Shown piece after piece: positions 11,148-52,875 of a DNA stretch of 64,000 nucleotides. The stretch covers positions 2,094 through 66,093 of the forward strand of contig JAFQFT010000021.1 in NCBI GenBank assembly GCA_017398545.1, read 5' to 3'. Source of the DNA: Bacilli bacterium (GTDB taxonomy: Bacteria > Bacillota_I > Bacilli_A > ML615J-28 > CAG-313). Position 1 is the stretch's first letter, and each line of letters begins with the position of its first letter. The notes under the pieces are model-generated. The model had not been told where the DNA came from, did no database searches, and saw only the letters and a list, made by a program, of their open reading frames with translations. Position numbers and translations under genes: made by a program.

Positions 11148-11498
11148 TTAATTCTTATTTATAATCCTAAACTTAAAATAATAATCCGTTTGCGTATTCA
11201 AAGTAGTTCTACCATAATAATATTTAACTACTTCATTTTCTTTAATTAAAAGAACTTCTCCATCATTTTCCCAGAGTTTTTTACAAGGTATATTAAGTGT
11301 TACAACAATCAATCCATCAATTTCTTCTATTTTTTCAATAAAAGACTTATTCTCTTCATGAAAAGGAAGATTTAAATACTCTCCTACTTTTAATTTCACC
11401 TCATAACTACCAAAAGAAGAATCCATTTGTGGCATCCCCTCTAAATCAAAGATTGCATGAAATTCATAATATAAAACATATTCATCAATATTTTTCAT
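11148..11498 (-). CDS. Hypothetical protein (116 aa)
   Basis: Clean ORF with GGAGG RBS (aggaggaatgcattATG). No recognisable motif. Confidence 0.4.
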   Translation of the reverse strand: MKNIDEYVLYYEFHAIFDLEGMPQMDSSFGSYEVKLKVGEYLNLPFHEENKSFIEKIEEIDGLIVVTLNIPCKKLWENDGEVLLIKENEVVKYYYGRTTLNTQTDYYFKFRIINKN

Positions 11499-11597: not shown

Positions 11598-11713
11598 TAT
11601 TTCTATTCAAATTCTATTGTTGCAGGTAGTTTAGAAGTGCAATCTAATAGTACTCTATTAACACCTTTTGCTTCATTAACAATTCTTCTTGAAATAATGT
11701 CTAATACATCATA
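11598..11713 (-). pseudogene. Orphan duplicate of the last ~37 codons + stop of guaA (direct repeat copy A)
   Basis: 116 nt match 12876-12991 (the real guaA 3' end) with only 2 mismatches. There is no upstream guaA body, so it is non-functional. Confidence 0.85.
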
Positions 11714-11788
11714 TTGTATTCAAATTCAATTATTGAAATTTTAAAAATTACTATTAAAATATTAGGTAATATTTTTCGATATAAAACA

Positions 11789-11830
11789 GGCCCACCATGG
11801 TACGCTTATATCAGAGGCGCGGTGGGATCT
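11789..11830 (-). ncRNA. 42-nt GC-rich hairpin element, copy A (downstream of abiF)
   Basis: Plus-strand sequence is GGCCCACCATGGTACGCTTATATCAGAGGCGCGGTGGGATCT, identical to 12761-12802. It has a CCCACC/GGTGGG stem plus an inner CGC/GCG helix. On the minus strand it is followed by a U-rich tract, so it may also terminate abiF. Confidence 0.55.
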
Positions 11831-11857
11831 GTCATTATATATTATGTACACATATGA

Positions 11858-12739
11858 TTATTTAATACTATTTAAAATATTTTTCCAATTTTTTTCAAAG
11901 CCAATTTGGGTTAAATCAACACTTGAGTATTTATTAAATAACAAGTCTAAATCATTTATAATCTTATTTTTTTGACTACTATTTTTAATTAATTTAATCA
12001 TGATAAAAACATATATAAATAATTTATGATTACTATTAGATACATTGATATTGTTTTGTGTAAGCATTTTTTTATCATTATTAGAAATTTTAGGAGCAAG
12101 TTCAAATTCTTTTCCATATATCCTGCTTAAATGTGCACAAGAATTTCTTAAATTAGACAAAACATATAGATAATTCTTTAAATAATTTCTATTTATATCT
12201 AAATAATTTTTGCAAACAGCATCTTTACACGAGTTCATTAAATTAGAATACATCATTGATAAATTTCCAAATGATAAAACTTCTACTAAAACCCATATAG
12301 GTATATCCCTCCCATTAAAATGCTTTATAAAAGGTTCTTTAGAATACTTTCTAGTAATACTATCATTAATTTCTATTTGCAAATCGTTAAATCTATTTAC
12401 ATCTAAAAAATTATTTACGTCTAAGTAACATGTTGGTCCAAAAGTTAAAGACAAATTTAAAGCGATTTGTGTTTTAATTAAAATCTCAATATAATTTAAA
12501 AAACTATTAATTAATCCTCTTAATTCGCAATCAAAGTTATAAATTATAGATATCTCCTCAAATGTGGTAGTTTCGTTAAAAACATCATTCTTTGAAAATA
12601 ATTTTAAATATCCTGAAAATTTATAATAATTTACTTGATTTAAAAATTCTTTTGCCATTTCCAAATCAGTAATCTCTAATCCTCTATCAATCAATATTTG
12701 AACCTGTTCTTCTATTGTTTTTGGATCCTTCATTAACAT
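11858..12739 (-). CDS. abiF: Abi_2 (AbiD/AbiF-like) abortive-infection HEPN-domain protein
   Basis: The N-terminus KTIEEQVQILIDRGLEI...AKEFLNQVNYYKFSGYLKLF is the characteristic Abi_2 family signature. It carries the HEPN-type R-x4-H motif RNSCAH. A GGGGGA RBS lies upstream. Confidence 0.85.
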   Translation of the reverse strand: MLMKDPKTIEEQVQILIDRGLEITDLEMAKEFLNQVNYYKFSGYLKLFSKNDVFNETTTFEEISIIYNFDCELRGLINSFLNYIEILIKTQIALNLSLTFGPTCYLDVNNFLDVNRFNDLQIEINDSITRKYSKEPFIKHFNGRDIPIWVLVEVLSFGNLSMMYSNLMNSCKDAVCKNYLDINRNYLKNYLYVLSNLRNSCAHLSRIYGKEFELAPKISNNDKKMLTQNNINVSNSNHKLFIYVFIMIKLIKNSSQKNKIINDLDLLFNKYSSVDLTQIGFEKNWKNILNSIK

Positions 12740-12760
12740 ATTTCCCCCTATGAATAAAAA

Positions 12761-12802
12761 GGCCCACCATGGTACGCTTATATCAGAGGCGCGGTGGGAT
12801 CT
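12761..12802 (-). ncRNA. 42-nt GC-rich hairpin element, copy B (5' leader of abiF); candidate abiF-associated structured RNA
   Basis: Identical to 11789-11830. It sits between a consensus promoter and the abiF RBS. On the minus strand the hairpin is followed by CUUUUUAUU and then AGGGGGA-ATG. Confidence 0.55.
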
Positions 12803-12811
12803 ATTGTAAAA

Positions 12812-12840
12812 ATTATATCATTATATTATAATTAATTCAA
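12812..12840 (-). promoter_or_regulatory. Sigma-70-type promoter of the abiF cassette
   Basis: Minus strand reads TTGAAT (12835-12840), 17-nt spacer, TATAAT (12812-12817). The predicted start is a few nt before hairpin copy B. Confidence 0.6.
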
Positions 12841-12880
12841 TTAAAATGGTAATTTTTTTACATAACTAATAAAAATATTT

Positions 12881-14422
12881 CTATTCAAATTCTATTGTTG
12901 CAGGTGGTTTAGAAGTGCAATCTAATAGTACTCTATTAACACCTTTTACTTCATTAACAATTCTTCTTGAAATAATGTCTAATACATCATAAGGAATTCT
13001 AGCCCAGTCAGCTGTCATAAAGTCAGTTGTAGTTACAGCACGAAGTGCTATTGCGTAGTCGTATGTTCTTTCATCACCCATTACACCAACGCTTTGCATA
13101 TTTGTAAGTGCTGCAAAATATTGACCAAGAGTTTTATCAATACCAGCTTTAGCAATTTCTTCACGATAGATATAGTCAGCATCTTGAACAATTCTAACTT
13201 TTTCCGCTGTTACTTCACCAATAATTCTAATACCAAGGCCTGGTCCTGGGAATGGTTGACGGAATACTAAGTATTCTGGAATTCCAAGTTCTAAACCGAC
13301 TTTCCTTACTTCATCTTTAAATAAAAGTCTTAAAGGTTCAATAATTTCTTTAAAATCAACAACCGATGGAAGACCACCTACATTATGATGTGATTTAATT
13401 GTAGCACTTTTACCAAGACCTGATTCAATAACGTCTGGATAAATTGTACCTTGAACTAAAAAGTCAACTTTACCAATTTTCTTAGCAACTTCTTCAAACA
13501 CTCGTATAAATTCTGTACCAATAATTTTACGTTTTGCTTCTGGATCAGTAACACCTTTAAGTTTACTGTAAAATCTTTCTTGTGCATTTACTCTTACAAA
13601 GTTTAGGTTATAATTTCCATCTTTACCAAATACAGCTTCTACTTCGTCACCTTCATTTTTACGAAGTAAACCATGGTCAACAAATACACATGTAAGATTA
13701 TTACCAACAGCCTTTGATAATAGTACAGCTGCAACACTAGAGTCAACTCCACCAGATAATGCACAAAGTACTTTACCACTACCAACACGGTCTTTAATTT
13801 CCTTGATTGTCTTTTCTGCAAAATCAGCCATTTTCCAGTCACCTGAACATTTACAAATATTTTTAACAAAGTTAGAAAGCATCTTCATACCTTCAACTGT
13901 ATGAGCAACTTCTGGATGGAACTGTACAGCATATAAATTTTTATCTTTATTTTCCATTGCCGCAACAGGACAATCTTTAGAATATGCAGTAACATTAAAT
14001 CCATTTGGTGCTTCTTTTATCAAGTCAGTATGACTCATCCAACAAATTGTTTCTTTTGATACATTATCAAAAAGTAACGAATTATTATCTACAATAATAG
14101 GAGTTTTACCGTATTCTGATGTTTCAGCATGTTCTACACATCCACCTAAAAGATGTGCCATAAGTTGTGATCCATAACAAATACCAAGAATAGGAATATT
14201 TAAATCAAAGATTTCTTTATCACAAAGTGGAGAATTTTCTCCATATACGCTAGCAGGACCACCTGTAAAAATAATACCTTTAGGATTTAATTCCTTAATT
14301 TTTTCGATTGATAAATTATATGGATGAACTTCGCAGTAAACATTACATTCTCTTACTCGACGTGCGATAAGTTGATTATATTGTCCACCAAAGTCTAATA
14401 CTAATACAAGTTCATTTTTCAT
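12881..14422 (-). CDS. guaA: GMP synthase (glutamine-hydrolysing)
   Basis: GATase motifs ([20 protein letters not shown]), ATP-PPase P-loop SGGVDSSV, and canonical C-terminus PPATIEFE. Confidence 0.95.
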
Positions 14423-51074: not shown

Positions 51075-52673
51075 TTATTTAATTTTTGATATATTTTGTG
51101 AAATATTTAATAAATGATCTCCTAATCTTTCAAAGTTAATTAAGATATTTGAATAAATTATTGACCCTTCTGCTGTACAAATTGATGTACTTAATCGTTT
51201 TACCATATTTGCTTTATATTCAATGGTCATTTTATCTGTTCTATCTTCTAATTGTTCAACTTCATTAAGTTTTAAAGGATCCATACTTATATCTAACATT
51301 TGATTAATAATTTCTTTATAAGTTCTAATTTCTTCTTTAACTATTTTATTTATAGTTATATTTCTATCTTTAAACTCATTTCCATATTCCATTAAATTAA
51401 CCGCATGGTCACTTAATCTTTCAATATTGTGAGTTATATTTAAGTATGCACTATAACTTTCACTAACTGCATGATTTGATTCATGAGAAATACAATCAGT
51501 AATTTCTTTTGTTATACCCTCATTTAACTTATCAATTAAATCTTCTTTTTCTAATATATCACTAGTATCTACTTTTTCTCCTAATAAATAATTAATACTA
51601 TTGTTTAAGTTTTCAATCGACAATTCATAAATTCTATTAATTTCTAATCTAGTATTTTCTAAATGTATCGCCGTACCACCAACTCTTGTATTGATATCAT
51701 GACCAAGATATTTAAATATAGATTCACTTTCAATCACTTTGTCTGGTAATATAATATTAGCAAGTTTAACTAAATATGCACCAAGTGGTAAAAGTAACAG
51801 TGTTGTAGCAACATTAAATATCGTATGCATATTAGCAATTTGTTGAGATGGATTATCTCCAGATATTTTCTTCACTAAAGTAGTTAATGGGGTAACTAAA
51901 CATAAAACAGTAAATAACACAGTACCTGTAAAGTTAAAGATAAAATGAATAAGTGTTGTTCTTTTCGCATTTCTATTTGTTCCCGCTGATGCAAGTAATG
52001 CAGTAACACAAGTACCAATGTTTTGTCCAAATAATACAAACACTGCACTTTCAAGTCCTATAGCACCGCTTATTGCTAAAGCTTGTAATATACCAACTGA
52101 TGCTGATGATGATTGAATAATTATCGTAAACACCATACCTGCAAGTATTCCTAAAATTGGATTTGAAAATTTAGTCATTAAACTCACAAACTCAGGCATA
52201 TCTCTTAATGGTGCCATAGCAGAACTCATCATATCCATACCAATAAAAAGAACACCAAAACCACATAATATTTTACCAATTTCATTTAATGTAGCTTTCT
52301 TTAAAAATACAATCATAATAACACCAATAACCGCAAATATTGGCGCAATAAATCCAATATCAAGCGCAATTAATTGACCTGTAATTGTTGTACCAATGTT
52401 TGCACCCATAATAATCCAAACAGCTTGAGACAATGTCATCATTCCTGCATTTACAAATCCTACTACCATTACTGTAGTTGCAGAAGATGATTGAATTACC
52501 ATTGTAATTAATGCTCCGACAATTACTCCTAAAAACCGATTAGCTGTTAATTTTTCTAAAATTGTTTTCATTTTATTCCCACAGGCATTTTCTAAACCAC
52601 TGCCCATAGAATTCATCCCAAGTAAAAACAACGCTAATCCGGCAATTAAATTTAAAATGTTATCTATTCCCAT
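51075..52673 (-). CDS. Na/Pi cotransporter family protein with PhoU-like C-domain
   Basis: Duplicated QSSSA(T/S) motifs and a C-terminal PhoU-like helical repeat. The track ORF starts at a GTG (52715), but the ATG at 52671-52673 has a GAAAGGAG RBS and is the likely start. Confidence 0.8.
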   Translation of the reverse strand: MGIDNILNLIAGLALFLLGMNSMGSGLENACGNKMKTILEKLTANRFLGVIVGALITMVIQSSSATTVMVVGFVNAGMMTLSQAVWIIMGANIGTTITGQLIALDIGFIAPIFAVIGVIMIVFLKKATLNEIGKILCGFGVLFIGMDMMSSAMAPLRDMPEFVSLMTKFSNPILGILAGMVFTIIIQSSSASVGILQALAISGAIGLESAVFVLFGQNIGTCVTALLASAGTNRNAKRTTLIHFIFNFTGTVLFTVLCLVTPLTTLVKKISGDNPSQQIANMHTIFNVATTLLLLPLGAYLVKLANIILPDKVIESESIFKYLGHDINTRVGGTAIHLENTRLEINRIYELSIENLNNSINYLLGEKVDTSDILEKEDLIDKLNEGITKEITDCISHESNHAVSESYSAYLNITHNIERLSDHAVNLMEYGNEFKDRNITINKIVKEEIRTYKEIINQMLDISMDPLKLNEVEQLEDRTDKMTIEYKANMVKRLSTSICTAEGSIIYSNILINFERLGDHLLNISQNISKIK

Positions 52674-52700
52674 AATTTCTCCTTTCAAAACTAAAAAATG

Positions 52701-52817
52701 GTAAATAGAATCCACCCGTTATATTTGACAGACTCCACCTAAAATTATTTAACTGTATAAAAAACAAAAACGAGTAGATAGACTCCACCCGTTATATTTG
52801 ACAGACTCCACCTAAAA
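52701..52817 (-). repeat. Two 44-nt direct repeats (73-nt period) in the leader of the Na/Pi transporter gene
   Basis: 52701-52744 and 52774-52817 differ at 2 positions. Each contains two copies of GA(C/A)TCCACC (minus strand: GGTGGAGTC). Confidence 0.7.
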
Positions 52818-52829
52818 AACTATTTAATT

Positions 52830-52875
52830 ATAAAATAAAAAGAGACTCCTACCTAACTAATTAGGTAAAAGTCTC
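52830..52875 (-). terminator. Terminator hairpin (expression platform of the Mn riboswitch)
   Basis: Minus strand has GAGACTTTTACCTAA-TTAG-TTAGGTAGGAGTCTC (15 bp including G-U pairs), followed by TTTTTATTTTAT. Its 5' arm is the 3' strand of the riboswitch P1. Confidence 0.6.

Follow-up and report, generated by a model that had tools for sequence, protein, structure and literature searches.

The abiF locus and its two hairpins

The stretch of DNA analyzed here, referred to as the window, comprises 64,000 nucleotides (nt) of contig JAFQFT010000021.1 from the Bacilli bacterium assembly GCA_017398545.1. It bears a small cassette in which abiF, a gene for a predicted toxin of the Abi_2/HEPN type, is bracketed by two identical 42-nt hairpins, called AbiFr-U and AbiFr-D for their positions upstream and downstream of the gene. 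From one end to the other, the cassette is made up of the following elements:

12812-12840, minus strand: promoter-like TTGAAT-17-TATAAT with TG before the -10 box, a consensus match ending 9 nt ahead of the 42-mer
12761-12802, minus strand: AbiFr-U, upstream abiF-motif hairpin, matched over its full length by the Rfam model RF03085 (23.5 bits, sub-threshold as detailed below) and by the models R1 (60.5 bits) and R2 (64.7 bits) of this study
12763-12798, minus strand: paired core of AbiFr-U with outer stem CCCACC/GGUGGG, inner stem, 11-nt loop and 3' bulge
12744-12760, minus strand: U-tract UUUUUAUU right after the hairpin, then a GGGGG ribosome-binding site; putative attenuator and translation start region
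11858-12733, minus strand: abiF, Abi_2/HEPN toxin gene, 291 amino acids (aa) from the second ATG; the maximal open reading frame (ORF) begins at 12739
12131-12148, minus strand: HEPN catalytic motif RNSCAH (R198-H203), aligned to RNSCCH of PDB entry 8VZ6
11789-11830, minus strand: AbiFr-D, downstream abiF-motif hairpin, 27 nt after the stop codon, matched by Rfam, R1 and R2, conserved and covarying in homologous loci

An initial annotation, made from the letters of the window, had described two identical GC-rich hairpins around an Abi_2/HEPN gene, and this layout is confirmed. The 42-mer AGATCCCACCGCGCCTCTGATATAAGCGTACCATGGTGGGCC is present in exactly two copies in the window, at 12761-12802 and 11789-11830 and both on the minus strand, where none would be expected by chance, and a third copy with up to three mismatches does not exist in the 64 kb. 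With one mismatch, the repeat around the 42-mer extends to 47 nt. The copies are 972 nt apart with the toxin gene in between, and the spacings given at the outset, 21 nt from the upstream copy to the first ATG of the abiF ORF and 27 nt from the stop codon to the downstream copy, are correct. The same holds for the GC-rich character in AT-rich surroundings, as the bin with the upstream copy has a GC content of 0.56 and the downstream copy straddles two bins of 0.38, compared with mostly 0.11-0.31 in the remaining bins of the insertion that harbors the cassette. Moreover, the minimum-free-energy fold of the upstream hairpin is identical to the covarying structure described below, in agreement with the CCCACC/GGUGGG pairing already proposed, though the folding energy of the single hairpin is unexceptional (z = -1.2) and was therefore not used as evidence, the structural support being provided by covariation. 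In the case of AbiFr-D, the flanks add an ACAG/CUGU basal stem, seen in the fold, which is followed by UUUUAU.

The ORF at 11858-12739 on the minus strand is recognized by Pfam as Abi_2 (PF07751, E = 4e-43) and by PADLOC as AbiD (E = 2e-83), and neither of these searches gave a ToxN match. From end to end, its product can be aligned to the solved structure of PbAbiF, deposited as PDB 8VZ6 "Abi family protein" (E = 1e-29), hence showing full-length homology, yet at modest sequence similarity. Within the RNSCAH motif, R198, N199, A202 and H203 are invariant across homologues. From the 293-aa ORF with Abi_2 signature and R-x4-H motif that had been annotated, domain and motif are retained, while the length is probably 291 aa, as the homologues are all of this size and the GGGGG ribosome-binding site is located 10 nt upstream of the second ATG (12733), which is the likely start. 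Two homologues of 455 aa (P0032 and P0034) are fusions that combine Abi_2 with a GNAT acetyltransferase domain (PF13673/PF00583).

Assignment to the abiF RNA motif family

The abiF model of Rfam (RF03085), whose use on both copies had been proposed in the initial annotation, aligns them over their full length with every pair formed, albeit at 23.5 bits (E = 0.38) and thus under the gathering score of 37. As these matches are sub-threshold, own covariance models, R1 and R2, were built from homologous loci. The loci comprised eight around the homologue P0012 (70% identity) plus a 1291-nt contig encoding a 99% homologue, and 80 AbiF loci obtained by scanning a single genome for each species. For R1, motif candidates were obtained with a simple pairing descriptor and 20 of them were aligned. 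In this alignment, 7 of the 10 pairs show double-sided changes, and pairing amounts to 97.5% versus 22-47% with the 3' partner slid by one to three columns, the percentage paired being inflated by the pairing-based choice of this first set, which leaves the compensatory changes unaffected. Covariation in homologous loci, as sought in the initial annotation, supports the upstream motif and is also seen in the outer stem of the downstream copies.

Under the own models, the window copies reach 59-65 bits, and R1 matches inside the window are exactly two. When applied to both strands of 632 kb from 83 sources, R1 produced 74 matches, of which 73 lie on the abiF strand and adjoin the start or stop codon. 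As the matches abut abiF on the abiF strand, the comparison assigns the window hairpin to the abiF RNA motif family and not to repetitive extragenic palindromic (REP) or miniature inverted-repeat transposable (MITE) elements, a generic origin that had been named as the outcome speaking against a link with abiF; by its end-to-end alignment, the gene is likewise classified as a full-length AbiF homologue. At the gathering score, Rfam recognized neither upstream nor downstream copies (0 in total) in 11 scanned loci from the AbiF clades with a bracketing pair of motifs, and this blindness may be the reason for their having gone unnoticed.

Among the homologues, a sizeable AbiF clade, sharing about 29-36% identity with the query, has no abiF motif on either side by R1 or R2 (L028-L030, L032-L038, L040, L042, L045, L046, L048, L050, L057, L058, L067, and L078). 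These proteins may employ a different RNA, or none.

Conservation of the downstream copy

A motif copy after the gene had been considered unusual in the initial annotation. In the loci compared, it turned out to be a conserved trait of two AbiF sub-clades and hence not a local oddity of the window. In about 17 distinct cassettes with 36-99% protein identity from several Bacillota, abiF lies between two motifs, the second of them 3-39 nt past the stop codon. The downstream copy is present in the window, L001, L002, L010, L011, L013-L015, L017-L023, L025, L026, L114, L115, and L118-L127, and the alignments reveal its conservation and covariation across both sub-clades. In the 70-74% identical homologues (L002, L010, L011, L114, L115, and L118-L127), about 25-30 nt separate the upstream motif from the start codon and 26-32 nt the stop codon from the downstream motif, with the cassettes residing in differing genomic contexts, in the case of L002 beside a decayed integrase. 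The second sub-clade, clade a (36-40% identity), has the same layout and is represented by Clostridium saudiense, C. celatum, Virgibacillus, Sedimentibacter, Bovifimicola as well as metagenome-assembled genomes of Lachnospiraceae and Oscillospiraceae. Downstream copies from clade a were absent from the training of R1 and are still detected by it (E = 4e-6 to 0.04).

Structurally, the clade-a downstream copy is compact and has a strongly covarying outer stem CCUGNN/NNCAGG. For the downstream copies, outer-stem covariation includes CG/UA and AU/GC changes, with four pair types at two positions. The clade-a upstream copy, in turn, shows no variation in its CCCACC/GGUGGG stem and accommodates an additional covarying hairpin within the loop (L013-L026; for example, L017 1944-1996). 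Both types retain GCCU at the loop start and the GCGUAAC bulge. More generally, over the range of 36-99% protein identity, GCGUA(A/C)CA in the bulge and GCCU(C/A)UC at the start of the loop are kept, the stem covarying freely. A YAG(A/U)UCC flank is likewise conserved at both copies. Behind the clade-a downstream motif comes a hairpin of 8 bp capped by a GNRA loop (GCAA, GUAA or GCGA), in which 8 of 8 pairs covary (L013-L026; for example, L025 2264-2290), and a U-run behind this hairpin exists in only some loci, namely the three L013, L021 and L025.

In several loci, the distance from the stop codon to the downstream motif is only 3-16 nt, leaving no space for a separate promoter between gene and motif, and a promoter scan of the window gave no minus-strand promoter for the downstream copy. 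An own promoter of this copy was consequently rejected, the short distance being found in many homologues. By tblastn, a second abiF gene or a remnant of it was not detected after the downstream copy, neither in the window nor in 22 bracket loci. In the absence of both promoter space and a second abiF, the downstream copy is best read as an element of the 3' untranslated region (3' UTR) that would be transcribed together with abiF.

Predicted transcription signals

The geometry of -35 box, 17-nt spacer and -10 box is kept before the upstream motif in 19 homologous loci aligned. The TTGAAT-17-TATAAT promoter of the initial annotation is therefore present and conserved in its geometry, but such promoter-like matches are not enriched in this AT-rich DNA, and its function is a prediction from the sequence. 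Behind every upstream copy in the aligned homologous loci, CCUUUU(G)UUUU and then GGAGG or GGGGG are conserved. By analogy with RCd22, the RNA upstream of abiF in Clostridioides difficile (PMC12373285), transcription might be terminated at the upstream hairpin and its U-tract.

Origin of the sequence identity between the two copies

In the homologous loci L010, L011, and L115, an upstream type CCCACCGCG...GGUGGG can be distinguished from a downstream type CCCAUCAYG...GAUGGG, the two differing by a compensatory replacement of C:G with U:A. The downstream copy of the window and of L001 is of the upstream type over all 42 nt, its flanks remaining of the downstream type (CAG...CUG). In L002, conversely, the 5' half of the upstream copy is of the downstream type, which leaves a U:G pair. 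This mosaic points to gene conversion between the copies and not to a fresh duplication, and the perfect 42/42 identity in the window is accordingly best explained by such a conversion, judging from the type-specific positions. As the hairpins are the only conserved non-coding sequence around abiF, it would be between them that conversion takes place.

Insertion at guaA and alternative alleles

The cassette is part of an insertion at the 3' end of guaA, for which the following elements were identified:

12881-14422, minus strand: guaA (GMP synthase, 513 aa; Pfam GATase and GMP_synt_C; named glutamine-hydrolyzing GMP synthase), its 3' end being the insertion site
12876-12991, minus strand: proximal copy of the guaA tail (about 115 nt), functional 3' end and left direct repeat (repeat D1), from alignment with the empty site in L102
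11736-11788, minus strand: AT-rich spacer, right end of the inserted unit, present only in contigs with the same insertion
11714-11735, minus strand: 22-nt degenerate copy of the very end of guaA, CAATAATTGAATTTGAATACAA (repeat family D3, 86%), abutting the displaced tail
11598-11713, minus strand: distal, displaced copy of the guaA tail, right direct repeat, with a downstream context identical to the empty site in L102
11553-11607, minus strand: native guaA terminator-like inverted repeat I9, now parted from guaA by the insertion and directly after guaA in L102

The direct repeat (11598-11721 and 12876-12999) shows 96% identity at a spacing of 1278, and relative to the empty site the cassette is a 1278-bp insertion. 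The latter site was recovered via GuaA homologues in L102-L104 (GuaA 98% identical, same gene order; L102 4880-5160), whereas a pattern scan of JGI metagenomes had given no match. In these loci, guaA is followed by the native terminator and a 116-aa ORF, exactly matching the context of the distal tail copy in the window. The distal copy moreover differs by two substitutions of its own, V to A and P to L, the second turning a conserved KPP into KLP. Both observations identify it as a displaced and decaying guaA tail. The 22-nt copy of the guaA end adjoining it may be the remnant of an older att site. Besides abiF, no gene is found in the 1278-bp insertion, including none for a recombinase or integrase, and a DNA match of the cassette was not obtained in phage and plasmid collections. 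As routes of insertion, an integrase acting in trans and a Campbell-type crossover with a circle that bore the guaA tail are candidates.

Genomic islands, for example of the Tn5801 type, use the 3' end of guaA for integration and bring along a substitute for the gene tail. With these, the insertion in the window shares direct repeats of the gene tail as flanks, an intact guaA and the decay of the displaced tail. It differs in its size of only 1278 bp, in abiF as sole gene, in the missing integrase and in the long repeat of about 115 nt. Compared with an integron gene cassette, the insertion likewise shows no integrase, and its hairpin is an RNA motif of the RF03085 type.

Beside the empty and the occupied site, a third allele was observed. 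In L105-L108 (GuaA 95% identical), the guaA stop codon is followed by a window-like spacer and promoter (88% identity) and by one hairpin of 61.6-63.9 bits (L105 5043-5170; L106-L108 4043-4170). In place of abiF, unrelated sequence comes after this solo hairpin and then the 116-aa ORF. The solo hairpin may represent a scar, serve for docking or act as an orphan antitoxin. Its origin in L105 and L106 as a simple product of deletion between upstream and downstream copies is not supported, as the 3' stem is of the upstream type and the following sequence is unrelated.

Locus L109 (4043-4591) encodes the same GuaA protein as L106 and is identical to it from guaA into the first part of the hairpin. 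Past the 5' half of the hairpin, it is 99.4-99.6% identical to the abiF cassette of unrelated contexts (L115 and L118), where the cassette is found in a variable defense island next to HipA, SLFN/AAA_14 or AbiEii genes. The breakpoint of this chimera within the hairpin marks the latter as a crossover point between cassette and chromosome. L109 covers the left side and the cassette. In most other contexts, the shared sequence begins 60-67 nt upstream of the hairpin and ends 100-250 nt past the downstream hairpin, and it is only in L002 that homology to other cassettes stops exactly at the downstream hairpin end. Judging from these alignments, recombination at the hairpins happens and is not the rule.

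One identical AbiF protein (P0170) is encoded in L118-L127, in a variable defense hot spot upstream of a GGDEF/EAL gene; the neighbors vary by contig and include HipA_C, SLFN_AlbA_2 with AAA_14/DUF4143, and AbiEii. The 116-aa ORF (11148-11498, minus strand, in the window) is conserved between guaA and an addB-like gene in all related strains and has no match in Pfam or PADLOC.

Other features of the window

A 73-nt unit is repeated in tandem at 52694-52835 (two copies, 87% matching), where it overlaps and extends upstream of the 5' end of a 546-aa ORF (51075-52715, minus strand); the unit has no Rfam match at the gathering score. The only Rfam family above the gathering score in the window is a ZMP/ZTP riboswitch (RF01750, 29882-29963, minus strand, 56.1 bits).

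Comparison with known systems

In C. difficile, AbiF (AbiFCd) is toxic and requires R202 and H207 for toxicity (Saunier et al., 2025; PMC12373285), and R210 and H215 are likewise required in PbAbiF (PMC12373285). Upstream of AbiFCd, RCd22 is composed of two tandem abiF motifs and then a terminator; it lowers abiF expression in cis and neutralizes AbiF in trans by direct binding (PMC12373285). For PbAbiF and its non-coding RNA (ncRNA) AbiFr (8VZ6; Zilberzwige-Tal et al., Cell 2025), the accessible portions of the literature describe a homodimer with two ncRNAs (PMC12373285, PMC12737573, PMC13064643). According to the same portions, AbiFr neutralizes AbiF by direct binding, its single-stranded bulge blocks the HEPN active site, and AbiF processes its ncRNA (PMC12737573, PMC13064643). 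How one ncRNA became repeats in the transition from AbiF to Cas13 is listed as an open question (PMC12737573). Hence, the pairing of an RNA antitoxin with a HEPN toxin, as put forward in the initial annotation, is supported for the window by the RF03085 family and by full-length AbiF homology, and it has already been demonstrated by experiment for AbiFCd/RCd22 and PbAbiF/AbiFr, a pairing published in 2025 as a type III-like toxin-antitoxin system. A motif copy after abiF, on the other hand, is not described in the accessible portions of the AbiF literature (PMC12373285, PMC12737573, PMC13064643, PMC11381338, PMC12165695), which deal with an upstream ncRNA only, although Zilberzwige-Tal et al. 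or the supplements of Weinberg 2017 could record one.

With the AbiFCd/RCd22 system of the phi027 prophage, the window cassette shares the Abi_2 HEPN toxin with an R-polar-x3-H motif, two motif copies per locus and, as predicted from the sequence of the window, a SigA-type promoter upstream and a putative terminator-like element before the toxin gene. In RCd22, however, the motifs are in tandem, 19 nt apart, within one upstream RNA of about 100 nt that has a separate terminator hairpin, whereas the window motifs flank the gene, each with its own U-tract. In addition, AbiFCd belongs to a prophage lysis module, while the window module, described here from its sequence, is a chromosomal insertion at guaA. 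The inhibitory 3' bulge of the PbAbiF/AbiFr complex has a conserved equivalent in both window copies; for this system, the accessible text mentions the upstream ncRNA alone, to which the window adds the downstream copy.

Type III toxin-antitoxin systems (ToxIN, AbiQ/antiQ, CptIN, and TenpIN) obey the logic that is predicted here as well, of promoter, repeated antitoxin RNA, terminator and toxin gene, with a toxin that is an RNase binding and processing its own antitoxin RNA. Their toxins, however, have the ToxN/AbiQ fold and their antitoxins form a tandem array of 2-5.5 units upstream, in contrast to the HEPN Abi_2 protein and the gene-flanking copies in the window, where a tandem repeat of the motif as in the canonical ToxIN-type array is missing. 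CRISPR-Cas13 systems have in common with the window a HEPN effector related to AbiF and an effector-bound hairpin repeat RNA. In contrast to these, the cassette has neither short spacers nor array or adaptation genes, its only "spacer" being the 972-nt toxin gene, and with two copies it falls short of the at least three short direct repeats with spacers of similar length by which CRISPR is defined.

Proposed function and alternative explanations

Overall, the locus is interpreted as an AbiF/AbiFr toxin-antitoxin (abortive-infection) module in a bracket layout, which we consider probable. Transcription would start from the sigma-70-type promoter a few nt before AbiFr-U. Most transcripts might be halted by AbiFr-U and the U-tract behind it, like at the RCd22 terminator, resulting in a surplus of free antitoxin RNA. 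Read-through transcripts would contain the ribosome-binding site and abiF and end at AbiFr-D in the 3' UTR with its own U-tract. As both hairpins keep the loop and the 3' bulge that blocks the HEPN site in the PbAbiF complex, AbiFr-D is proposed as a second antitoxin unit, then located within the toxin mRNA and also serving as its terminator. In this arrangement, each mRNA could supply two RNAs, matching the two bound by the AbiF homodimer, provided that AbiF binds the downstream copy as well. Processing by AbiF at both hairpins could trim, and hence limit, the abiF mRNA. Additionally, the hairpins act as crossover points in cassette exchange.

Several observations weigh against this interpretation. 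The Rfam score stays under the gathering threshold, and the first covariation set was biased toward pairing by its descriptor. Promoter and terminator calls are consensus matches only, that is, predicted signals, and the terminator scanner flagged neither hairpin, as the loop is too long for its rule. Within the bracket clades, L012, L016 and L024 are without a downstream copy, with an ordinary terminator in its place in L016, indicating that the copy is dispensable in some lineages, and most AbiF loci at 35% identity or less carry the upstream copy only. In clade a, furthermore, the role of the downstream copy may differ from that of a simply duplicated antitoxin, since its CCUGNN outer stem deviates from the upstream stem and a separate GNRA hairpin follows.

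A more far-reaching version of the module interpretation, held tentatively, is that the two sub-clades have split the antitoxin RNA around the toxin gene. The 5' leader would then be the attenuator and the 3'-UTR copy a true AbiF ligand that couples each mRNA to antitoxin and lets AbiF trim its message. Both copies together would make a portable cassette, with the solo hairpins as docking sites, scars or orphan antitoxins.

Clearly less plausible than the module interpretation itself, and compatible with an AbiF/AbiFr module, is that the hairpins mainly serve as cassette boundaries, at which a circle with abiF and one hairpin recombines with a resident solo hairpin, loosely attC-like. The order of repeat, gene and repeat would in this case be a trace left by integration. 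Such an exchange is suggested by promoter and solo hairpin without abiF at the same guaA site in L105-L108, by L109, where the left flank of L106 passes within the hairpin into sequence 99.4% identical to the cassette of L115 and L118, by the precise end of homology at the downstream hairpin in L002 and by the gene conversion between the two copies. In most contexts, however, the boundaries of the shared sequence lie outside the hairpins, which are therefore not the usual cassette ends, and the window insertion is bounded by the guaA-tail repeats and lacks a recombinase gene. Furthermore, the clade-a copies, which differ in their outer stems and by the upstream loop insertion, are too dissimilar to recombine and are both still maintained, and for the right junction of L109 the homologues of the 116-aa ORF and the members of the AbiF cluster gave only solo-hairpin or other contexts.

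It is unlikely that the downstream hairpin is only a terminator or 3'-end stabilizer, copied from the upstream hairpin and devoid of an antitoxin or AbiF-binding role. Such a function would be in line with the U-run behind it, the basal stem added by its flanks, the ordinary GC-rich terminator occupying the same place in L016 and the U-run after the extra GNRA hairpin in three clade-a loci. For termination, however, a stable stem would suffice, yet it is the unpaired GCGUA(A/C)CA bulge and the beginning of the loop that are conserved and the stem that covaries freely, a pattern indicating selection on those nucleotides by which AbiFr is described to contact the protein (PMC12737573). In L013, L021, and L025, the U-run belongs to the separate later hairpin, so that the motif is not itself the terminator there.

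Very improbable is a nascent CRISPR-like array or an origin of the downstream copy as leader RNA of a lost second abiF gene, even though AbiF is seen as an ancestor of Cas13, motif duplication has been discussed as a step to arrays and adjacent abiF genes are reportedly frequent (PMC12373285). The "proto-array" of the initial annotation is not borne out, as its two repeats are separated by 972 nt holding the toxin gene and no tandem array or repeat-spacer structure is formed. The leader of a lost gene, considered as a candidate for the downstream copy, was rejected since tblastn searches of the window and of 22 bracket loci found nothing; besides, no ribosome-binding site comes after the copy, and many loci have no promoter in front of it. 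Finally, a dispersed REP/MITE-like repeat unrelated to abiF, of which a GC-rich palindrome in AT-rich DNA might be reminiscent, can practically be dismissed in view of a copy number of only two per 64 kb even with three mismatches allowed, the equally low number of two model matches in the window, the homology to RF03085 and the location of all significant matches from 83 sources next to abiF on its strand.

Implications

Neutralization of a HEPN AbiF toxin by a structured RNA has been known since 2025, and what is new in the loci compared here is a conserved and covarying second motif after the gene. The 1278-bp insertion is accompanied by its alternative alleles, and empty, occupied and solo-hairpin alleles at one site, together with a chimera having its breakpoint in the hairpin, provide material on the movement of small defense cassettes without a recombinase. 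If AbiF binds the downstream copy, the latter would be a natural duplication of the AbiF ncRNA outside a tandem arrangement, and the view of antitoxin dosage and of control over the fate of the toxin mRNA would change. If true, the split of the antitoxin RNA around the toxin gene would represent an undescribed route from a single AbiF ncRNA to multi-copy, effector-processed repeats and would thus bear on the origin of Cas13 arrays.

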